A program made the translations under genes and the position numbers. Under the pieces are notes generated by a model that was given only the letters and a program-made list of their open reading frames with translations, ran no database searches and was not told the origin of the DNA. A stretch of DNA of 19,295 nucleotides, taken from positions 1-19,295 of IMG/VR virus record IMGVR_UViG_2563366887_000005. One strand, given 5' to 3'. This document shows positions 1,447 through 19,295 of the stretch, piece after piece. This stretch comes from a virus. Taxonomy: Duplodnaviria > Heunggongvirae > Uroviricota > Caudoviricetes. Within the stretch, counting starts at the first letter, position 1; the number at the start of each line of letters is the position of its first letter.

Positions 1447-1533
1447 GCTGAAAAACATAACCCATAAAATGCTAGCTGTACCAGGAACCACCTCCTTAGC
1501 CTGTGTAATCTCCCTTACACGGGCTTATTTTTT
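1447..1533 (+). ncRNA. cyaR: CyaR (RyeE) Hfq-dependent small RNA
   Basis: Sequence GCTGAAAAACATAACCCATAAAATGCTAGCTGTACCAGGAACCACCTCCTTAGCCTGTGTAATCTCCCTTACACGGGCTTATTTTTT matches CyaR as I recall it; ends in a hairpin plus U-tract; located between yegQ and ogr as in K-12. Confidence 0.85.
1507..1533. repeat. attL core (27 bp, AATCTCCCTTACACGGGCTTATTTTTT), reverse complement of the P2 att core, overlapping the cyaR 3' end
   Basis: Exact 27-bp direct repeat of 18792-18818; flanks a prophage with ogr at one end and int at the other. Confidence 0.85.
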
Positions 1534-1934: not shown

Positions 1935-3098
1935 TCATTCATCATCTTCTGTTTCGTACTCCACATCAGAAAGCCTGACCTCAAGCTCTAAGGACGTCGT
2001 GAAGCCGCTATTATTCAGAAAATGTGTCACCTTAGTGATGGTCCAGTCCTGCTCGTCTATGACGCGCTTAAAGCCTGACACTCTGACCGGTGTTTCCGTG
2101 TAAATATCTGCACGACCGGTAGCCAGGATGATGGAGAACTCCGCTACACCCCGTTGCAGCTTATCCCACTTCGCCTGAGCGGCACGCATGGCCTGCGCTT
2201 TCGTGGCATATACCGTAGTCAGGGCAAAAACGTTGTCAGCCTCACCGGCCATGTATTCACCTTCGCGCGCTTCCGGTACTTTTGGCGCTTTCTTCTGCGT
2301 GACCGGTTTCGCTTTCGGGTGCTCCAGTGCGCGCAGGTGTTTCTCTTTCTTTTTGCGTTTCAGTTTTACCTTCTGCTTTTGTGGCTTCGGGTCTTTGGTG
2401 TGTAACCACTTTGCCGTTACGCCGGTATAGGCTCCACGGTCAGCAATCGCAAAATGATGGCGGTCGCCGTCGCTGCGGGTGATGGTAATCTGCGGGATTT
2501 TTTTACCGCTGGCCGTCACCCCCTGCCCTGCTTTGAGAAACAGCAGTTCTCCCATTTTTACCGACACCTCGCCGCCGTTGCGTTCAGCAAGACGGGTCAG
2601 GAATTTCACATCAGACTCCTGCGACTGGTCGATGTGCGGGATTTTAATTCCGGCCAGTGACGGAGCGACACTGGCTTCCAGCCTGTTACGGGAGGCTATC
2701 GCCTCAACAATCGCACCGAGCGTGGTGTCATGCCAGGAGCCTTCCCGGCGGGAATTGAGCGTCCCACGAAAATCTGCACTCCGGGCACGGATGGTGACCA
2801 CATCCGGTGCGCCCCGGTGTTCAACCTCATCAACGGTAAATTTCCCTTTGCATACCAGGGCAAAACCTTTCCAGCCGATATACACCGTCAGGACAGCGCC
2901 ACGAACAGGCAGCCCGACCTGCCCGTCGGCATCGTTCAGTTCAATATCAAGCTGGTCAGCCTCAAAGCCCCGGTTATCCGTCAGGGTCATGCTCATCAAA
3001 CGGTCGCTGATATTGCCGGTAATATCCCTGCTGTCGAGCATCAGCATGTAATCCGGCGTCAGCGTACTGCCTGCATCAAATGTCAGCGCATCCAGCAT
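1935..3098 (-). CDS. D: P2 gpD-like tail protein, 387 aa
   Basis: Full-length ORF, MLDALTFDAGSTLTPDYMLMLDSRD...; position between ogr and U matches P2 gene order; start overlaps the U stop by 1 nt. Confidence 0.9.
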   Translation of the reverse strand: MLDALTFDAGSTLTPDYMLMLDSRDITGNISDRLMSMTLTDNRGFEADQLDIELNDADGQVGLPVRGAVLTVYIGWKGFALVCKGKFTVDEVEHRGAPDVVTIRARSADFRGTLNSRREGSWHDTTLGAIVEAIASRNRLEASVAPSLAGIKIPHIDQSQESDVKFLTRLAERNGGEVSVKMGELLFLKAGQGVTASGKKIPQITITRSDGDRHHFAIADRGAYTGVTAKWLHTKDPKPQKQKVKLKRKKKEKHLRALEHPKAKPVTQKKAPKVPEAREGEYMAGEADNVFALTTVYATKAQAMRAAQAKWDKLQRGVAEFSIILATGRADIYTETPVRVSGFKRVIDEQDWTITKVTHFLNNSGFTTSLELEVRLSDVEYETEDDE

Positions 3099-3577
3099 TA
3101 TCCCGCCCCCGTCATACCCGTGAATTTAGTCGCCATACTGCCAGCCTTACCGATGAGCGATTCTGCCTGTTTACCGATATCGCCATAAAGCGCGGCCAGT
3201 GATTCATCCACGCGGGTGAGCGACAGCGTAAAATCAATTTTCCGGGGTGTGCCGTCTGCAAAGAAAATACTCCCTGTTTCACTCACCCTGCTGATGACAT
3301 ACATGCCGTAAATCATGCCGGTGCCATCCAGCAACGGCCACGCCCGGCCTTCCTCTGCCATCAGCCTGAGCGTGGTCATCGTCAGCTTCCCGCCGGTCAG
3401 TTCGGGATAAAGCACGCCGGCAAGCGTCATGTTTTCCTCACCCACACCGAGAAACTGGTAGGCATCCCGTTTACCGATACGGGAATTTGACGGCCAGCGA
3501 TAATCTGATTCACGCTGCATGGTCTGGTGTGGCAGCGTCTGGCGCATAAAAACAAACATACCTAACGCGAGCATCAT
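3098..3577 (-). CDS. U: P2 gpU-like tail protein, 159 aa
   Basis: 159-aa ORF with a strong SD (GGAGG) upstream; order T-U-D as in P2. Confidence 0.9.
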   Translation of the reverse strand: MMLALGMFVFMRQTLPHQTMQRESDYRWPSNSRIGKRDAYQFLGVGEENMTLAGVLYPELTGGKLTMTTLRLMAEEGRAWPLLDGTGMIYGMYVISRVSETGSIFFADGTPRKIDFTLSLTRVDESLAALYGDIGKQAESLIGKAGSMATKFTGMTGAG

Positions 3578-3591
3578 TTTTCGTCACCTCC

Positions 3592-5991
3592 TTAACCGTC
3601 ATGCATCATGCTGGCACGGGCGCGCGCACGTTTATCCCGCTCGTATTTTTCGAGCGCATCCTGTAACTGGCGGTCAAGCTGTGTCCCCGGCGCAGTACCA
3701 CCCGTCAGGCTGATGTGATATTCGTTTTTACTCTGGTCCACATAAGAGCGGCCAGCCGGTGCCGTGACCGGCTGATAAACCTGATAGCCTGCATAAGAGC
3801 TGGTCGCCGGAATATAACCACCGCTGCCATACGTGGCGGCTTGAGTTCTGGCGGCGGTCTGGTCAAGTGTGTCTGACTCTTTGTTGATAACACCGAGTTT
3901 TTCCAGTACCCAGTCAATACCGCTGCGCAGTTTGTTGAACGCATTAAGCGGCAGCATCAACGCGTCAGCCAGTGCCTGCCCGAACATGACACCCGTGTCA
4001 CGGCAACGGTTCAGGGTGTCCTGGGTGGCTTTGACGGGGGCAATCAGGTTTTTAAACCACTGCCACGCGGCCTGTAACTTTTCACCCAGCCAGTCAAACA
4101 GCGGCTTAAGTGGCGTGAACAGTTCCCCCACCGGCGCAAATGCCGCTTTCAGCCCTTCCACCACACCGCCAAAGAATGCGCTGACAGGCTCCCAGTATTT
4201 ACGGATAAGCAACGCCCCGGCGACAATTGCAGCCACCACGGCCACAACCGGCCAGCTAATCGCCCCGATGGCCGTCATAACGGCACTACCAACCGTCGTG
4301 AAGATTGCCCCCATTGCGCCTGCTGCCGCGATGATGGCATTGATGCCAGTGATAACCGGCCAGGCTACAAGACCAATTGCACCGATGATGCCAGTAAGCG
4401 CCAGCGCGCCACCGGCAATGATGCCAATGGTTGACGCCAGTGATTTGTTTTTCTGGATCCAGCCGTCGAGTTTTAACACATACTTTGTGGCCGTCTGTGT
4501 GAGCTTACGCAGTGCGCCTTCCTGCTGGTCAAACAGGTCTGTCCCCACCGCCTCATAAGCGGACTGAAACTCCTTAAAGTCACCGCCGAGGTTGTCCTGC
4601 ATGATATTTACCAGCTCGGCAGTCTTCCCGTCTGAGGCTTTAAACGCAGCGGTCAGTTTGTCCAGCTTTCCGGTTGAGGCGGCAGTCATCAGCACGGCAG
4701 CGGCTGAGCTGGCCTCCTCCCCGAAAATAGTTTTCATGTATTCAGCCTGCTGGGCAGTACCGAGCCGGTTTTTCTCAAAACTGGCCTGCATTTCTTTCAG
4801 AATGGTAAATATTGGCCGGGTGTTTCCTTTGCTGTCTGAGGTTTTCACTCCAAGCTCTTTGAGTGCATCCCATGCTTTTCCCGTCGGTGCCTGCAGGCGG
4901 CTTAACACGGCACGGCTTCCCGTCCCCGCCATTGAGCCTGTGATTTTTGCATCATGCAGCGCCCCGACCATTGCGGCGGTTTCTTCAATGCTGACACCGG
5001 CATTTTTTGCCACAGGTGCGGCATAGGTCAGCGCATCGCTCATGCCGTCAAAATCGGCGGCGGTTTTGTTCATCGTCATGGAGAGGACATCCCCGATATG
5101 AGCGACCTTATCGTTTGAAAGCTGAAAGGCGGATTTCATCCCCATCAGCAGGGCGGCGTTTTCTTCCATTGTGCGACGGTTCGCCAGCGCCATATTCAGC
5201 GTGACCGGCGTTGCCGCCTGAATGGCATCAACATCCCCACCGGCTTTCGCAATAATAATCTGCGCACCGGCTGCATCATCTGCCGAGGCTGCGGTATTGT
5301 CGCCGAGCTGGCGCGCCTGCTTGCGTAGTGCAGCCATTTCGGCGGAGTCTTTTGCCACACCGAGCACAGCCTGCAATTCTGAGTTTTTCTGCGCAAACTC
5401 ATAACCGGGCATCAGCAGCTTAACTCCGGCCATCGTTCCCGCCGCCGCAATCCCCACACCGGCAGCGCCCACTGAGGCCATATTTCCGGCCAGTTCCTTT
5501 CCGGCCTGATAACGCTGTTTTACTGCGTTAAGTTTTGCCTGTTGTGCACTGACACGCGCCAGTGCGTCACGCTGACGGTTAAGCTGTGCGGTGGTTTCAC
5601 TGATACGGTTTTTCAGTCCCTGCTCATCATGTGCAAGATTGCGGGTATTAATTCCCACAGCGGCCAGTTCCCGCTGCTGGCGTTTAACGGAGTCCGTCAG
5701 GCGGTTATATTTCGCCTGTAAGTCCTCCGCCGCACGCTTTGCGGATTCGCGCAGTTCCTCAACCAGAATGACCAGATGCCGCATACTACGCCCCAGCCTG
5801 TCCAGCTTCCAGACTACCAGAGTGTCACCTGCTGATAATGTTCTGAGCAGTTTTTTCAGCCCCGGCCTGTCGGACTTCGTGCCGCTGATTTTGTCCTCAA
5901 AAATCAGCTCACATCCTGCGCACTCCAGCGCATTACGCTGCAATTCCGTGTTCTGGTCATTTGTTGACACGCGTACATAGCCAATAAGCAT
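3592..5991 (-). CDS. T: Chimeric ORF: tail tape-measure protein (gpT-like, N-terminus missing) fused in frame to the first ~82 codons of a serine DNA invertase gene
   Basis: C-terminal ~700 aa show tape-measure features (long Ala/Gln-rich helical region, Gly/Ala-rich hydrophobic stretch IGIIAGGALALTGIIGAIGLVAWPV...). N-terminal MLIGYVRVSTNDQNTELQRNALECAGCELIFEDK...TLVVWKLDRLGRSMRHLVILVEELRE is a Pin/Gin/Hin-type resolvase catalytic domain. Junction estimated near 5745. Confidence 0.75.
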   Translation of the reverse strand: MLIGYVRVSTNDQNTELQRNALECAGCELIFEDKISGTKSDRPGLKKLLRTLSAGDTLVVWKLDRLGRSMRHLVILVEELRESAKRAAEDLQAKYNRLTDSVKRQQRELAAVGINTRNLAHDEQGLKNRISETTAQLNRQRDALARVSAQQAKLNAVKQRYQAGKELAGNMASVGAAGVGIAAAGTMAGVKLLMPGYEFAQKNSELQAVLGVAKDSAEMAALRKQARQLGDNTAASADDAAGAQIIIAKAGGDVDAIQAATPVTLNMALANRRTMEENAALLMGMKSAFQLSNDKVAHIGDVLSMTMNKTAADFDGMSDALTYAAPVAKNAGVSIEETAAMVGALHDAKITGSMAGTGSRAVLSRLQAPTGKAWDALKELGVKTSDSKGNTRPIFTILKEMQASFEKNRLGTAQQAEYMKTIFGEEASSAAAVLMTAASTGKLDKLTAAFKASDGKTAELVNIMQDNLGGDFKEFQSAYEAVGTDLFDQQEGALRKLTQTATKYVLKLDGWIQKNKSLASTIGIIAGGALALTGIIGAIGLVAWPVITGINAIIAAAGAMGAIFTTVGSAVMTAIGAISWPVVAVVAAIVAGALLIRKYWEPVSAFFGGVVEGLKAAFAPVGELFTPLKPLFDWLGEKLQAAWQWFKNLIAPVKATQDTLNRCRDTGVMFGQALADALMLPLNAFNKLRSGIDWVLEKLGVINKESDTLDQTAARTQAATYGSGGYIPATSSYAGYQVYQPVTAPAGRSYVDQSKNEYHISLTGGTAPGTQLDRQLQDALEKYERDKRARARASMMHDG
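5746..5991 (-). pseudogene. Serine DNA invertase (Pin/Gin/Hin/Cin family) 5' fragment; C-terminal HTH DNA-binding domain deleted
   Basis: The catalytic-Ser motif YVRVST is present, but the ORF switches to tape-measure sequence after ...LVEELRE; no invertase C-terminal domain is found anywhere in the window. Confidence 0.75.
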
Positions 5992-6058
5992 GATCATCCC
6001 CCTGAATAAAAACCGGGGATGATGCCAGTTAGCCATTATCTCTGCATTTTCATAAACG

Positions 6059-6092
6059 TTGGTTTGGGAGAAGCGGCAAAACGGAATGTAGG
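6059..6092. repeat. Inverted repeat, left arm (34 bp crossover site of the invertible tail-fibre segment)
   Basis: TTGGTTTGGGAGAAGCGGCAAAACGGAATGTAGG is the exact reverse complement of 7606-7639; encodes the conserved [10 protein letters not shown] junction peptide in both orientations. Confidence 0.8.
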
Positions 6093-6426
6093 TAACGGGC
6101 AAAACCAAATTCCGGATATGGCGGCGTTTGCCAGTTCACTTTCATCAACGGGTTTTCAAAAACTTCCTTCAGGTCTGATTATTCAGTGGGGTATTGTCAG
6201 TGGAGCATCAAACTATACGGTGACTTACCCGGTAACATTCCCAAATCGTTCACTTGCGCTGTTGGCTGTGCCACATACAACGTCGGTGGCTGGTATATCT
6301 GCAATGGGCATAGCGAACTGTTCTGATATCAGCAAATCACAGTTCTATATAATTGTTGGCGGTATATCTCAGGGAAAAATTGTCAAATATGAAAGGTCCT
6401 GTTTTTGGGTAGCAATCGGTGTATAG
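6059..6426 (+). CDS. Alternative tail-fibre C-terminal (variable) domain in the silent orientation (Sv'); no promoter or constant region of its own
   Basis: Shares the [20 protein letters not shown] junction and KLPxGxIxQWG pattern with the opposing 7266-7760 ORF; the reading frame begins inside the inverted repeat. Confidence 0.6.
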
Positions 6427-6434
6427 GTATATCT

Positions 6435-6830
6435 ATGATTTATTTCTCAAAATCGACTAATGGTTTTTTCTTTGATGGTATAAACAGCGACATGCCTGCT
6501 GACATTGTTGAGATAAGTACAGACTTATACAATGAATTAATTGCCGGACAGCAGGAAGGGGGTAAATTAATCACGTCAGATGAAAATGGTTTACCGGTAC
6601 TGAAATCTCCGGCGATTGATTATGTCGCACGTGCTGAAAATCAGCGAATGCAGTTACTTGCTCATGCCGATAATGTCACAGCTGACTGGCGGGTGGAATT
6701 AATGCTTGGTGATATCAGCAGTACAGATAAAGAAAAACTATCTGCCTGGATGGACTACAAAAAAGAAGTAAAAGCCGTCGACACTTCGACGGCTCCTGAG
6801 ATTAGCTGGCCTGAGTTACCGGAGGTGTAG
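6435..6830 (+). CDS. Tail-fibre assembly chaperone (Tfa, gpG/U'-like)
   Basis: Translation MIYFSKSTNGFFFDGINSDMPADIVEISTDLYNEL... has the typical Tfa N-terminus; start taken at ATG 6435 rather than the upstream TTG. Confidence 0.75.
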   Translation: MIYFSKSTNGFFFDGINSDMPADIVEISTDLYNELIAGQQEGGKLITSDENGLPVLKSPAIDYVARAENQRMQLLAHADNVTADWRVELMLGDISSTDKEKLSAWMDYKKEVKAVDTSTAPEISWPELPEV

Positions 6831-7245
6831 GCCATTCAATATCTGGAGCACTGGAGGTATCCACCAGTTCCAGTGCGTCCAGGTAATCCAGCCACAAATT
6901 ATATTGCGCCAGTTCCTCACCTTTCAGACGACCAATAGCTGATTTGCCAGGCCATTGCTTACTGTTCATGTATTCGTTAGCCTGGTTAATTAGTAGCTGT
7001 TTTTCTGATTCAGTAATTTCAATAAGCTCTTCATACGTGGGTGGAGGAATATCTGCCCACGCAGGCAGCCCATCATCTCCGGCAATACGGATTTTTCCTT
7101 GTGGCGGTTCAGCCATAAACTCACTGATAATATTTTGATTTACTTCCTTTGCGTCTGATAAATCCCATCCCTCTGATTTATATTTATCAATCATATCCAC
7201 AGGGAAAAAAGCATTATGCCTTGCGCTATAAACATATTCGTTCAT
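6802..7245 (-). CDS. Tail-fibre assembly chaperone (Tfa, gpG/U-like), partner of the currently expressed fibre C-terminus
   Basis: Translation MNEYVYSARHNAFFPVDMIDKYKSEGWDL...; convergent with the other Tfa, 3' ends overlapping. Confidence 0.75.
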   Translation of the reverse strand: MNEYVYSARHNAFFPVDMIDKYKSEGWDLSDAKEVNQNIISEFMAEPPQGKIRIAGDDGLPAWADIPPPTYEELIEITESEKQLLINQANEYMNSKQWPGKSAIGRLKGEELAQYNLWLDYLDALELVDTSSAPDIEWPTPPVTQAS

Positions 7246-7265
7246 ATAAATCACCCTGAATAAAA

Positions 7266-7760
7266 TTACTCACCAACAGCCCACCAACTGTAATTCATCG
7301 ATACTGTGGAGCTGGTTGATGCAGTTCTGTAAGCGGAATTAAAACCGGTTAGTGTTGGACCTTCTGCAGTCATCACGAATCCCCGTCCAGCGCCTAAAGG
7401 CGCACCACCATCACCAGAATGGGTAAGCATGGCGCAGTCCACTTCTTTAGGAAAAGGGATGCTGAATGTAATTCTCATTGTTTGCGTCGATAATGTCGGC
7501 GTAATCGCACCACGACCATATTGCAGGATTTTCCCGTTGGGTAATTTCATCCATCCATCACCACTGGCAAAAGAGGTCATGTCCGGTATCTGATTTTCCC
7601 CTGTTCCTACATTCCGTTTTGCCGCTTCTCCCAAACCAAGGTATGCGAGAAGACCAGCTACATCCTTTCCACTCAAATTAGTCAGCGTATTGTCCAGCGG
7701 TTGTTTACCTGCCAGCGCATTAAGCATTGTCGTGGCAAAGTTCGGATCGAGGAGCTGCAA
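7266..7760 (-). pseudogene. Tail-fibre protein (gpH-like) 3' fragment: short constant-region remnant plus variable C-terminal domain (Sv); most of the gene deleted
   Basis: The ORF runs through the right inverted repeat ([21 protein letters not shown]) but has only about 40 codons upstream of it before meeting terminase P sequence on the opposite strand. Confidence 0.65.
7606..7639. repeat. Inverted repeat, right arm (34 bp crossover site)
   Basis: Exact reverse complement of 6059-6092. Confidence 0.8.
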
Positions 7761-8378
7761 CGCTGCATGGTCGACACGCTGGAAGAATGGGAAGACTATG
7801 CGCCGTTTGCCACCAATCCGTTCGGCTCACGTCCGGTATGGATTGGTTACGACCCGTCACACCGTGGCGACAGCGCCGGATGCGTGGTACTGGCACCGCC
7901 GGTGGTGGCCGGTGGCAAATTCAGGATCCTTGAGCGTCACCAGTGGAAAGGCATGGACTTTGCCACCCAGGCAGAATCCATCCGCAAACTCACCGAAAAA
8001 TATAACGTTGAATACATCGGTATTGATGCCACCGGCCTCGGTGTCGGTGTGTTCCAGCTCGTGCGCTCGTTCTATCCCGCCGCTCGCGATATCCGCTACA
8101 CGCCGGAAATGAAAACCGCAATGGTCCTCAAGGCAAAAGACGTCATCCGCCGTGGCTGTCTGGAATATGACGTCAGCGCCACCGACATCACCAGCTCGTT
8201 TATGGCTATCCGCAAGACCATGACCAGCAGCGGACGCAGCGCCACCTATGAGGCCAGCCGCAGCGAGGAAGCCAGCCACGCCGACCTCGCCTGGGCGACC
8301 ATGCACGCTCTGTTAAATGAGCCACTCACCGCCGGTATCAGCACCCCGCTGACATCCACCATTCTGGAGTTTTACTGA
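7701..8378 (+). pseudogene. P: Terminase large subunit (gpP-like) C-terminal fragment; 5' two-thirds deleted
   Basis: The ORF ends 1 nt into the portal gene start (TGATG overlap), matching the P-Q operon arrangement, but only about 225 codons remain where P2 P is about 590 aa. The 5' boundary is uncertain (junction somewhere in 7640-7760). Confidence 0.7.
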
Positions 8379-9412
8379 TGAGCAAGAAAAAAAGGAAAAC
8401 ACCGCAACCTGCGGCAAAAAAAATGACCGCCAGCGCCCCGAAAATGGAGGCATTCACCTTTGGTGAGCCGGTGCCGGTACTCGACCGCCGTGACATTCTG
8501 GATTACGTCGAATGCATCAGTAACGGCAGATGGTATGAGCCACCAATCAGCTTTACCGGTCTGGCAAAAAGCCTGCGTGCTGCCGTGCATCACAGCTCAC
8601 CGATTTACGTCAAACGCAATATTCTGGCTTCAACGTTTATCCCGCACCCGTGGCTGTCCCAGCAGGATTTCAGCCGCTTTGTGCTGGATTTTCTGGTGTT
8701 CGGTAATGCGTTTCTGGAAAAGCGTTACAGCACCACTGGTAAGGTCATCAGACTGGAAACCTCACCGGCAAAATATACCCGCCGTGGTGTGGAAGAGGAT
8801 GTTTACTGGTGGGTGCCGTCCTTCAACGAGCCGACAGCCTTCGCGCCCGGCTCCGTGTTTCACCTGCTGGAGCCGGATATTAATCAGGAGCTGTACGGCC
8901 TGCCGGAATATCTCAGCGCCCTTAATTCTGCCTGGCTGAATGAGTCGGCCACGCTGTTTCGCCGCAAGTATTACGAAAACGGCGCTCATGCCGGATACAT
9001 CATGTACGTCACCGATGCCGTGCAGGATCGCAACGATATCGAAATGCTTCGCGAAAACATGGTGAAGTCAAAAGGCCGCAATAACTTTAAAAATCTGTTT
9101 CTCTATGCCCCGCAGGGGAAAGCCGACGGCATTAAAATTATCCCCCTCAGTGAAGTGGCAACGAAAGACGATTTTTTTAATATCAAAAAAGCCAGCGCCG
9201 CTGACCTGCTGGACGCGCACCGCATCCCCTTTCAGTTGATGGGCGGCAAGCCGGAGAACGTCGGGTCGCTGGGTGATATTGAGAAAGTGGCAAAGGTCTT
9301 TGTCCGCAATGAGCTTATCCCGTTACAGGACAGGATCCGCGAGATAAACGGCTGGCTTGGTCAGGAGGTCATCCGCTTTAAAAACTACTCACTGGACACT
9401 GACAACGGTTGA
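8378..9412 (+). CDS. Q: Portal protein (gpQ-like), 344 aa
   Basis: Full-length 344-aa ORF immediately upstream of cos, as in P2; basic N-terminus MSKKKRKTPQPAAKK. Confidence 0.85.
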   Translation: MSKKKRKTPQPAAKKMTASAPKMEAFTFGEPVPVLDRRDILDYVECISNGRWYEPPISFTGLAKSLRAAVHHSSPIYVKRNILASTFIPHPWLSQQDFSRFVLDFLVFGNAFLEKRYSTTGKVIRLETSPAKYTRRGVEEDVYWWVPSFNEPTAFAPGSVFHLLEPDINQELYGLPEYLSALNSAWLNESATLFRRKYYENGAHAGYIMYVTDAVQDRNDIEMLRENMVKSKGRNNFKNLFLYAPQGKADGIKIIPLSEVATKDDFFNIKKASAADLLDAHRIPFQLMGGKPENVGSLGDIEKVAKVFVRNELIPLQDRIREINGWLGQEVIRFKNYSLDTDNG

Positions 9413-9838: not shown

Positions 9839-10903
9839 ATGTCAGGTGAAACTCAAAATATTTCAGCAATGGCAGAAAAAATATCTTCAGACCTATTCAA
9901 ATGGTTTAAGTGGGAACTCGTTGGTCCAACCAATGAAAACTTTCCATGCATGAAAAAAGATCAACATAAAACACTAGCCGGAACACATCCAACTGATGTT
10001 GTATTTTCTTATAAAGATCCCTATTTGAATAGAACTATTTTTTTAAATACTGATTTAAAAAGCTATATTAAAGGCTCAATTACAGCAACTAAAATGCGCA
10101 ATGCTTTAGTATCTCTGGCTAATTCTATTGACTGTGCTCAAGGTTGTAAAGAATGGAAGGAGCGTTATTCTTATAAAAATGGTGCATCAGAAGTCAGAGG
10201 CATGCTCTTTGTATACAACCATGACGGAGACTTTGACCAATCTTTTTATGATGTATTCTATCAATCTCACAATACTGAAACTGATAAGAAGAAAAGAGGT
10301 ATTAATCTTGACAATATACCGGTAAGAGCCGGTCAAAAAATACACATCATTGAACCAAGAACTATAAACTACTTGCAGTCAATAATCTGCGATTTATCAC
10401 AACTAAGCCACAAAAGAGAGTTTCCACTCGGTAAAAAATATCAATTCTTTTACCCAGACCTTTCACTACATAAAGTAAGCGGTTCGCCCGAAGAACTTCC
10501 AGCAACTGTAGAATTATTGACAGGCCCATTCCTTATTATAAAACATAATGACGTCAGACATTGCAATGAAGAAACATCACAATGGGAAACTACATTTAAA
10601 CATGGTTACATTATTTATTACAATGGCGAAGGAAAAAACGAGCTAGAGTTTATTTATATTCTAGACACGCTATCTAAATATCAATTACTAGATGGCAATG
10701 AAAATATAAGAATTAGAATAGTTAACCCTAACATACATAAAGATGTTCGCAGTATTTTTATGCGTGCGAAGGATAGTTATTGTCAAGAATGGGGGTTCGA
10801 TGAACATAAAAAAACGATAATAGATGCTATTGATTTTCAACAGGTAGAATTTACAAAGCCTCGTTTTAGTTCGGTAGAGATTGGTTGGGAGCGACAGGCA
10901 TGA
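9839..10903 (+). CDS. Hypothetical protein, 354 aa; first gene of the hotspot cassette; possible N-terminal PD-(D/E)xK-like nuclease motif (D53 ... D72-L-K74)
   Basis: Long ORF in an A+T-rich island; no resemblance to any P2 protein I know; stop overlaps the next start (ATGA). The motif assignment is from visual inspection only. Confidence 0.7.
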   Translation: MSGETQNISAMAEKISSDLFKWFKWELVGPTNENFPCMKKDQHKTLAGTHPTDVVFSYKDPYLNRTIFLNTDLKSYIKGSITATKMRNALVSLANSIDCAQGCKEWKERYSYKNGASEVRGMLFVYNHDGDFDQSFYDVFYQSHNTETDKKKRGINLDNIPVRAGQKIHIIEPRTINYLQSIICDLSQLSHKREFPLGKKYQFFYPDLSLHKVSGSPEELPATVELLTGPFLIIKHNDVRHCNEETSQWETTFKHGYIIYYNGEGKNELEFIYILDTLSKYQLLDGNENIRIRIVNPNIHKDVRSIFMRAKDSYCQEWGFDEHKKTIIDAIDFQQVEFTKPRFSSVEIGWERQA

Positions 10904-12012
10904 AAATTGGATTATATAGTGTAAATGATAAGGCAATGTTTGACGCATTGAATCAAACTAAAGTCACTCATGAAGATATGAAAAGTCTCTTTTTTAAAAG
11001 AGGAATGATTATATCCAAAGAGACTAAACGAAAAACATTGGCTTTGGATTTTTCCAGATACTATCATGGCTATTCTGATTTTGAATTTCTTTCAAACATA
11101 CTCGGTTCTGTTGGGCGGAGAGAAAAAGTATCAATTAACATTATTAATACAAATATAGATAAAAATAGTATGGAAAATACTATTAAATCTATTTGTGAAG
11201 ATCTTCAAAAAGAAGGCGATATAACTAATATAAATTACACCGAGAATGGTTTTGAAGTATCAATCAAATATGTGAAACTAGATTTCAAAATGAGCGAGTT
11301 TCGCCAATCCTCATCACGTGAAGCCAAAATACAAGTTGAAATGAATGAAAGCGGTGAATTTATCACCCGTTTCCCTCAAAATGCTAAAGCAAGGGAATTC
11401 AACGAGCGCCTCGTGGAGAAGATCAAAGAAGACAACAATGAGGATCCAGCCAGTCTTGATGAAATTTCGCTCGAAACTGTTAAATCACCAGCGGAAAGAA
11501 GCAAGTTTTTTGAGCAACTAATCTCAAGCATACCTAACTACAAATGCATTGACGTATCGGATGTATACGTTACGCATCCAATTCTTGAGTCAAATAAGTC
11601 TAACGAAAATGAAGATGATTCTGATGATGACGATACAATTATTGACACAGGATATCATATCTCCAAAGCTTCATTAAAAGGGCGCAGCGTTCTTGACTCT
11701 CTCGAGTTTAAAGAGTTGTTAGGAAAAGGATTTTATATTACCAAAATCATTTGGAGTTCTGTTGTTGACACTTATAAAGACTCGGACAAATATGAATTCG
11801 AGGCTCAATTTGTCGACCCAGATAATTGCAAGTTATTCTCGTATATCGTTCGCGGTGTTTATAAGTACAAAAATATAAACGAATATGCAAATCGTCAAAA
11901 TGTAGATAAAGAGAAGGAAAAACTGCTATTATTAGCACTTGAAAAAACCGCTCGCGAAATTTCAAACAGTATTATCGCCTCAAACACAATTGAGGTTGTT
12001 ACTGATAAATAA
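10900..12012 (+). CDS. Hypothetical protein, 370 aa; second gene of the hotspot cassette; contains an acidic DDSDDDD stretch
   Basis: ATG at 10900 overlaps the upstream TGA (translational coupling), with GGGAG 8 nt upstream; the ORF-track start at 10885 is a TTG and is less likely. Confidence 0.7.
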   Translation: MKIGLYSVNDKAMFDALNQTKVTHEDMKSLFFKRGMIISKETKRKTLALDFSRYYHGYSDFEFLSNILGSVGRREKVSINIINTNIDKNSMENTIKSICEDLQKEGDITNINYTENGFEVSIKYVKLDFKMSEFRQSSSREAKIQVEMNESGEFITRFPQNAKAREFNERLVEKIKEDNNEDPASLDEISLETVKSPAERSKFFEQLISSIPNYKCIDVSDVYVTHPILESNKSNENEDDSDDDDTIIDTGYHISKASLKGRSVLDSLEFKELLGKGFYITKIIWSSVVDTYKDSDKYEFEAQFVDPDNCKLFSYIVRGVYKYKNINEYANRQNVDKEKEKLLLLALEKTAREISNSIIASNTIEVVTDK

Positions 12013-12023
12013 AAGGAGTTGTT

Positions 12024-12695
12024 ATGAAAACAAAATGGTTTACTGCCAACTTCCCTGCTGGACTTGATAGTTTATATCAGTCTATCATTAACACTCCTTT
12101 TGATAGTGATAAAGGCTGGGGATTTAGTATCAACTCATATGAAGAAAATGCAATATCATCTCGATACATCGAGAAAGTAGAGGTCAACGAGATAATCGTT
12201 GATCCATATGGAAACGAGACTCAATATACACAGCTAAAATATATTCAATTTAACTTTTGGCTTTACACAACAAAAGGTAAAAACTTCATCTTAATCATTG
12301 AGTCGCCTCCCAGAAGCATTAAGAACTTCATATCAAACATAATTAAATCAACACATTCTGATTTTAATGTGTCAAATCTCAACATCAAAATTGAGGACTT
12401 CATTTATTTCCTGACCCCGCACTTTGAAAAAATACAAGTGCACAAGGCAAAATTAAAAGACTTAACGTTTAGCAAACACACATCCGGCATACTGGAACTT
12501 GAGTCATCAAGTGACGCACTTATGGAAATAAGAAACATTTTCAAAAATGCAAATTTTACAATTGATAAAGTTAAACTTAATGTTAAGGATGTGACCGGTT
12601 ATGAGTCATTAGAAATTAACACAAATGGGTCCATTTCACTTTCAGAGCAAATTTTTGACAAGGTGTATCTAACCATAGAAAGATTTGCCCTTTAA
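12024..12695 (+). CDS. Hypothetical protein, 223 aa; third gene of the hotspot cassette
   Basis: Strong SD (AAGGAG) 6 nt upstream of the ATG; 11-nt gap after gene 2; followed by a terminator. Confidence 0.7.
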   Translation: MKTKWFTANFPAGLDSLYQSIINTPFDSDKGWGFSINSYEENAISSRYIEKVEVNEIIVDPYGNETQYTQLKYIQFNFWLYTTKGKNFILIIESPPRSIKNFISNIIKSTHSDFNVSNLNIKIEDFIYFLTPHFEKIQVHKAKLKDLTFSKHTSGILELESSSDALMEIRNIFKNANFTIDKVKLNVKDVTGYESLEINTNGSISLSEQIFDKVYLTIERFAL

Positions 12696-18791: not shown

Positions 18792-18818
18792 AATCTCCCT
18801 TACACGGGCTTATTTTTT
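18792..18818. repeat. attR core (27 bp), direct repeat of 1507-1533
   Basis: Identical 27-mer AATCTCCCTTACACGGGCTTATTTTTT. Confidence 0.85.
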
Positions 18819-18977: not shown

Positions 18978-19295
18978 TCACTCTCCACATTTGAATGTCA
19001 GACGAGCGACACCATGTAATCCTACACCTTCTGTCTTCAGCTCAACTATTTGCATTTTTTTGCCCTGAGTAACACAGAAATGAGTTGCATCATTTTTTAC
19101 TATATTTTCTGCACCAGATATTCTGCCCCTGGCTAAAGAAGCTTCGGCTTCGGTGTAGTATTGGTTATCGAGTTTACGCTGAATATTACTTTTATATGCA
19201 AGACCAAATTTACCGATACTTGTCTCATCATTATGCACAGCACAACCAGACATAATAAAAATACTAATTAATGATATAGCAGCTATCTTTTTCAT
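18978..19295 (-). CDS. yegR: Putative lipoprotein YegR, 105 aa
   Basis: MKKIAAISLISIFIMSGC signal peptide with lipobox; 105 aa; sits after the P2 remnant as in K-12. Confidence 0.75.
   Translation of the reverse strand: MKKIAAISLISIFIMSGCAVHNDETSIGKFGLAYKSNIQRKLDNQYYTEAEASLARGRISGAENIVKNDATHFCVTQGKKMQIVELKTEGVGLHGVARLTFKCGE

Follow-up and report, generated by a model that had tools for sequence, protein, structure and literature searches.

The minus-strand open reading frame at positions 3592 to 5991 of the window (the whole 19,295-nt stretch of DNA analyzed here) joins the start of a DNA invertase gene, in frame, to most of a phage tape-measure gene, and we consider it very probably a by-product of prophage decay, generated by a microhomology-associated deletion of about 2.9 kb in a P2-like prophage of E. 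coli KTE197. The frame opens with an ATG at 5991-5989 and closes with a stop codon at 3594-3592, and its 799 residues (800 codons with the stop) comprise invertase residues 1-82 followed by residues 99-815 of the P2 tape measure gpT (chimera residues 83-799; 717 codons). The original prediction had given these limits and had set the switch between the two parts after LVEELRE; ungapped comparison places it at the Glu82 codon, exactly where it had been put. GenBank already lists the chimera, misleadingly named: the exact protein has a single record, on one contig, as ELH48205.1 of KTE197, 'DNA-invertase lambdoid prophage e14'.

The window is identical to scaffold KB733185.1 of E. coli KTE197 (GCA_000352945.1; 100% over the 15,991 nt compared) and contains no N. 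Its ends are occupied by yegQ (1-1362) and yegR (18978-19295), and between them two att cores bound a P2-like remnant of 17.3 kb, compared with 33.6 kb for P2 (Table 1). The gene order of the remnant is ogr, D, U, chimera, fibre segment, P fragment, Q, cos, cargo, A, early genes, B, cox, C, int. Deletions aside, T, U, D, Q and the early genes keep their full length, and FI, FII, E/E' and the promoter pF are absent. The three AT-rich cargo genes are a candidate defence cassette. A Pfam search of the three cargo proteins returned no match; PDDEXK_GAPS4 is listed among the precomputed matches of the first. The source of the window is a draft scaffold, and junction 1, where the two parts of the chimera meet, is known from the assembly alone.

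Table 1. Positions in the window of the chimeric frame, its parental parts and the surrounding features of the prophage remnant.
Feature	Positions	Strand	Basis or remark
att core, yegQ side, AATCTCCCTTACACGGGCTTATTTTTT	1507..1533		27-nt exact direct repeat with 18792-18818; aligns with P2 attP core
gpD, full length	1935..3098	-	Pfam Phage_GPD; collinear with P2
gpU, full length, downstream of chimera	3098..3577	-	Pfam Phage_P2_GpU, E 4.8e-44
Chimeric ORF, 799 aa	3592..5991	-	translation; Pfam Resolvase and PhageMin_Tail; exact protein look-up, GenBank ELH48205.1, E. coli KTE197
Tape-measure-derived part, P2 gpT residues 99-815 and stop codon	3592..5745	-	P2 T comparison
Deletion junction 1, 3-nt microhomology TTC (plus strand)	5746..5748		ungapped comparison with P2 T, pro483 T, pro483 and Cartapus invertases
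Invertase-derived part, codons 1-81	5749..5991	-	DNA identity 94% to pro483 invertase, 90.6% to Cartapus invertase; Gin structures
Invertase 5' leader, GGGGGA ribosome-binding site and hairpin	5992..6046	-	sequence; fold; collinear with pro483 invertase upstream region
Crossover site beside invertase, TTCTCCCAAACCAACGTTTATGAAAA	6047..6072	-	outer end of 89-nt inverted repeat
Invertible fibre segment, orphaned	6047..7651 (fibre region about 6019-7760)		Pfam Gp53-like_C, Caudo_TAP; 95% to Cartapus segment
Two alternative fibre C-termini	6019-6426; 7266-7760	+; -	Pfam Gp53-like_C, Caudo_TAP (segment)
Two fibre-assembly genes	6405-6830; 6802-7254	+; -	Pfam Gp53-like_C, Caudo_TAP (segment)
Distal crossover site, TTCTCCCAAACCAAGGTATGCGAGAA	7626..7651	+	inverted repeat arms 6047-6135, 7563-7651
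Deletion junction 2, overlap TC (2 nt)	7747..7748		comparison with Cartapus H and P2 P
Terminase gpP fragment, C-terminal ~210 codons only	7749..8378	+	Pfam Terminase_6C; P2 coordinates 1221-1852
Portal gene Q	8378-9412		between P fragment and cos region
Three AT-rich cargo genes	9839-12695		between cos region and A
att core, int/yegR side	18792..18818		exact 27-nt repeat of 1507-1533

The assignment of the first 82 or so residues to a Pin/Gin-type serine recombinase is borne out by both profile and structure comparisons. Chimera residues 3-83 match positions 2-92 of the 145 in the Pfam Resolvase profile (E 1.9e-26), and residues 1-84 of 193 in the Mu Gin structures 4m6f and 3uj3 align to the chimera N-terminus (E 1.5e-39), as do the gamma-delta, Tn3 and Sin resolvases in the structure-sequence comparison. 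The catalytic Ser9 motif YVRVSTNDQ is kept, with Ser9 lying within MLIGYVRVSTNDQ, and so is the DRLGRS motif (D64-R65-L-G-R68). Like the Gin, Pin, Cin and Hin invertases, to whose intact E. coli prophage representatives its first 82 residues are 96-100% identical (the P0018 and pro483 invertases differ from it by one to two residues), the chimera is encoded beside an invertible fibre segment with 26-nt crossover sites. Unlike them, it lacks the remainder of the catalytic domain, helix E and the C-terminal helix-turn-helix (HTH) domain. The invertase-derived part ends inside the helix preceding helix E, so that the catalytic domain is incomplete, without the helix of the dimer and tetramer interface, and no Pfam match to an HTH domain (HTH_7) was found in the chimera; the intact relatives, of 183-197 aa, have PF02796. 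At the DNA level, the pro483 invertase and its upstream region are 94% identical to the window from 5746/5749 to 6073, and the Cartapus sequence is 95% identical to it from 5749 to 7005.

Beyond the switch point the frame reads on without a stop into tape-measure sequence, as had been proposed. P2 gene T is 97.3% identical to positions 3592-5748 over 2157 nt, gap-free to the T stop codon, and chimera residues 223-424 match the whole PhageMin_Tail profile (PF10145; positions 1-201, E 2.3e-45). The chimera thus resembles P2 gpT (AAD03293.1, 815 aa) in having a complete PhageMin_Tail domain and in being followed by gpU, gpD and ogr, and differs from it in lacking residues 1-97, in having a foreign N-terminus and in the loss of E/E', FII, FI and pF upstream. 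The native gpT N-terminus, 97 residues unrelated to any recombinase, has been replaced by invertase residues 1-81. Where the T part and P2 T differ, the differences are synonymous in 46 codons and non-synonymous in 10 (n=719), a pattern that marks its past as a functional gene of a phage and not any later adaptation. Because the T differences are mostly synonymous and the genes otherwise full length, the deletion looks recent, with no sign of adaptation since.

The breakpoint can be placed to the nucleotide. The T match stops at 5748 and the invertase match starts at 5746, leaving an overlap of 3 nt, the microhomology listed in Table 1. The shared codon, GAA, is at once Glu82 of the invertase (LVEELRE, continuing RGVNF in the intact protein) and Glu98 of gpT (AQAKVLE, continuing SAKRAAEDLQ), and the alignment to P2 gpT fixes the breakpoint exactly at this Glu98 codon. 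Intact relatives that have an invertible fibre segment, the Peduovirus pro483 and Cartapus, supply the ancestral order: fibre switch, invertase, FI (sheath), FII (tube), E/E', T, U and D, co-oriented, and then ogr, with the intact invertase gene directly upstream of FI. In P2, where there is no invertase, FI is immediately preceded by the Ogr-dependent late promoter pF. Both flanks of junction 1 are collinear with pro483 and P2, and the genes between are missing; the interval lost between invertase codon 82 and T codon 98 measures about 2.9 kb on pro483 (L003, 4104 to 7001). Since the intact relatives run invertase-FI-FII-E/E'-T-U-D, a single deletion of this size explains the join. By comparison with pro483, Cartapus and P2, it took the 3' part of the invertase gene, pF, FI, FII, E/E' and T codons 1-97, which bears out, in all structural points, the original prediction that the invertase 3' half, the sheath, tube and E/E' genes and the T 5' end were removed with the frame kept open.

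A second large deletion lies 1.8 kb away; neither it nor the loss of pF figured in the original prediction. At junction 2, a fragment of the fibre gene H (minus strand) meets a C-terminal fragment of the terminase gene P (plus strand) head to head, and, by comparison with Cartapus and P2, more than 10 kb were lost here: the 5' parts of P and H together with the capsid, lysis and baseplate genes, R and S. The fibre segment adjacent to the chimera is bounded by two inverted 26-nt crossover sites, and the arms of its 89-nt inverted repeat (6047-6135 and 7563-7651) are 81% complementary. With the losses at the second deletion the fibre switch is orphaned, its fibre gene lacking the 5' part and its invertase gene the 3' part.

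We propose that E. coli KTE197 once carried, between yegQ and yegR, a P2-like prophage equipped with an invertible fibre switch of the Gin/Pin type. Illegitimate recombination at a microhomology would have deleted about 2.9 kb of it, from invertase codon 82 to tape-measure codon 98; the frames would have matched by chance (1 in 3), so that invertase codons 1-82 read into T codons 99-815. The open T frame is the native one, and the prior for an in-frame outcome is likewise 1 in 3. The capsid, lysis and baseplate genes would have gone with the second deletion, which took more than 10 kb. In randomly joined sequence, by our own calculation, an overlap of at least 3 nt is expected in about 5% of cases and one of at least 2 nt in about 16%; the 3-nt and 2-nt overlaps at the two junctions fit illegitimate microhomology-associated recombination, and are suggestive but not conclusive. 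The chimera would be transcribed from invertase signals, a step that we infer, and its product would be incapable of the dimerization and DNA binding that a recombinase needs, with no tail left for it to measure.

Other P2-like remnants at the same site have decayed in a comparable manner. The yegQ-yegR remnant of FORC_082 contains the fused fragments sheath'-I' and M'-O', and that of PE15 the fused fragment tube'-P'; K-12 ogrK-yegZ is a further defective P2-like prophage at this site. The FORC_082 and PE15 remnants share with KTE197 the integration site, the backbone and large internal deletions with fused fragments. Unlike in KTE197, the only one with the invertase-T join and a long in-frame chimeric ORF, their breakpoints lie elsewhere, differing in each strain, and their internal deletions are independent. 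Junction 1 itself was found in 0 of 5,426 complete E. coli genomes (1,900 matched on one side, and none covered 80% of the junction probe), and no match was obtained among GTDB species representatives, metagenome contigs and viral contigs. Likewise, the homologue search found no database protein spanning both sides of the junction, and a search of the literature for an invertase/tape-measure fusion turned up nothing specific.

The homologue search with the first 170 residues did recover many disrupted invertases. Invertase N-termini are fused to GpU (P0042, P0026), to the tube protein (P0065), to GpD (P0079) and to fibre-assembly proteins (P0024, P0078, P0080, P0118), and in P0034 the invertase N-terminus runs into GLGEAA..., fibre sequence whose coding DNA lies at the crossover site. 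A breakpoint hotspot near residues 79-90 was considered and rejected: when all 120 hits were aligned to a full-length invertase, the breakpoints spread over residues 79-178, and the apparent cluster near residue 82 arose because the invertase part of the query stopped there. The chimera is neither conserved nor recurrent; it is an ordinary singleton of prophage decay and does not represent a new kind of protein.

Two alternative accounts dispute how the join came about. Junction 1 could be a false join between invertase and tape-measure sequences in the draft KTE197 scaffold, and it is true that the chimera sequence comes from one draft assembly only and that P2-like sequences are repeated across many E. 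coli genomes. We regard such an artefact as very unlikely, because the window is free of N and matches the scaffold at 100%, the parental sequences share just 3 nt at the join, far too few for a k-mer-based misjoin, and both sides of the join follow the order of one prophage, with matching att cores at one locus; moreover, the second deletion, together with comparable remnants in finished genomes, demonstrates that such decay does occur. Alternatively, the invertase might have made the deletion itself, acting on pseudo-crossover sites in its own gene and in T. Serine invertases act occasionally on secondary sites, and P0034, with its crossover-site-encoded fibre sequence, can be read in favor of such an event. 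This route is highly improbable, however: the best matches to the 26-nt site within 25 nt of the parental breakpoints (11/26 and 13/26) are no better than background (median 12), which led us to reject pseudo-crossover sites; the overlap is TTC and not the central AA/TT dinucleotide of the sites; and junction 2 shows the same short-microhomology pattern without an invertase gene.

The remaining alternatives would give the chimera a function or a natural origin. It might have been kept because it is useful, either as a truncated tape measure, produced in the lysogen, that poisons the tail assembly of superinfecting P2-like phages or as a catalytic-domain fragment that interferes with related invertases. 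Consistent with this, all 799 codons are open, U and D downstream are intact, and a candidate defence cassette is kept in the remnant, parts of which may be under selection. In the most specific version, the lysogen would produce the chimera, with intact gpU and gpD behind it, constitutively, the invertase signals driving it now that the Ogr-dependent pF is deleted, and the tape measure with its altered N-terminus would be a dominant-negative subunit in the tail assembly of superinfecting P2-like phages; if true, prophage decay would by accident have created an exclusion factor that adds to the candidate defence cassette. We consider both usefulness in general and, separately, this constitutive dominant-negative effect to be highly unlikely, and nothing in the analysis supports an exclusion role. 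Against usefulness, no second copy of the junction turned up in any of the collections searched, chance alone opens the frame 1 time in 3, the T divergence is pre-existing and mostly synonymous, and residues 1-82 end at position 92 of the 145 in the Resolvase profile. Finally, the recombinase-like N-terminus could be a natural domain of tape measures in this phage group, a reading for which we found no supporting evidence and which is refuted, its probability being close to nil. All 75 phage records with at least 80% query coverage lose the match at the junction, more than 75 P2-like phage records show a normal T 5' end, the P2 gpT N-terminus is unrelated, no protein in the homologue search spans the junction, and the 90%-identity cluster that includes the chimera otherwise consists of 815-aa tape measures and partial ones. 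No result of the analysis spoke against the microhomology-associated deletion, our preferred explanation.

As to expression, the chimera had been credited with the invertase promoter and start. The 82 nt upstream of the ATG are 94% identical to the upstream sequence of the intact invertase gene, and because of this match the chimera probably inherits the weak expression signals of the invertase, whatever those were. A promoter in the stricter sense did not emerge, since a sigma-70 consensus scan of the minus strand upstream of the chimera found no site, and its attribution derives from synteny. In the predicted fold (-26.6 kcal/mol, z -2.8) a leader hairpin covers both the ATG and the ribosome-binding site and may limit translation. 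The further expectation that the chimera could serve neither as an active recombinase nor as an ordinary tape measure agrees with what it lacks: recombination activity is predicted to be absent because helix E and the HTH domain are missing, and without the T N-terminus and the partner genes it is not predicted to act as a normal tape measure. Most likely the protein does nothing useful and is an inert by-product.

The retention of the early genes, the att sites and the candidate cassette, together with the loss of structural genes, is the usual pattern of a defective prophage. The importance of the chimera is small beyond annotation hygiene and its use as an illustration of how precisely a deletion junction can be placed. 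It provides a base-pair-resolved case in which one microhomology-associated deletion has yielded a long open chimeric ORF that was annotated as a real protein. Fusions of invertase N-termini to other tail genes are scattered in the databases, and they should accordingly be flagged as pseudogene remnants and not as new domain architectures.

Next to the fibre switch, the invertase gene still has its first 243 nt, and in Gin, Hin and Cin systems the Fis-dependent enhancer lies within this 5' part of the gene. Because this stretch and both crossover sites (Table) have been retained, the fibre segment might still be inverted in trans by the invertase of another prophage, although its fibre gene is dead. 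The ribosome-binding site and start codon of the invertase both lie inside a leader hairpin with a predicted folding energy of -26.6 kcal/mol (z -2.8), which was also flagged by the terminator scan; in the parental invertase gene, this hairpin probably served to control translation.

Features around the chimera
Feature	Position	Strand	Details
Leader hairpin, invertase	5975-6036	-	ATCATCCCC ... GGGGATGAT
Invertible fibre switch, orphaned	6047-7651	.	both crossover sites retained
Second deletion junction	7747-7748		H fragment 7266-7760 (-), P fragment 7701-8378 (+); 2-nt microhomology TC
Three cargo genes, AT-rich	9839-12695	+	cos/Q end on one side, gene A on the other

The chimera (799 aa, 3592-5991) is recorded in GenBank (ELH48205.1) as 'DNA-invertase lambdoid prophage e14'. 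This name is misleading, because invertase origin is limited to the first 82 residues and the prophage belongs to the P2-like type rather than being e14. In other database proteins, too, an invertase N-terminal fragment continues in frame into sequence of a fibre, GpU, tube, GpD or fibre-assembly protein (P0034, P0042, P0026, P0065, P0079, P0024, P0078, P0080 and P0118 in our homologue search). In P0034, the join, between …ERGV and GLGEAATRNVG…, falls exactly at the fibre sequence that the crossover site encodes, and this fusion could be a true invertase-mediated event.

At the second deletion, also a large one, what is left of tail-fibre gene H meets terminase gene P head-to-head; of P, only the C-terminal 210 codons remain, and the capsid, lysis and baseplate genes were lost. 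P2-like prophages of E. coli FORC_082 and PE15 also occupy the yegQ-yegR site and, compared as whole loci, have decayed independently; the fused fragments vary by remnant (sheath'-I', M'-O' and tube'-P' in these two strains).

Decay of the prophage has left all three cargo genes unbroken. Their GC content is 0.33-0.35, versus ~0.55 in the phage backbone, and their PADLOC hits are to the consecutive candidate-defence models Hp1, Hp2 and Hp3 (PDLC03004-6; E values 2e-63, 4e-37 and 5e-8, respectively); precomputed Pfam matches assign PDDEXK_GAPS4 to the first protein. They occupy the same slot that usually holds tin/old-type cargo in P2, and this slot has other content in FORC_082 (a SacI-type restriction-modification system) and PE15 (a DUF4325-containing set).
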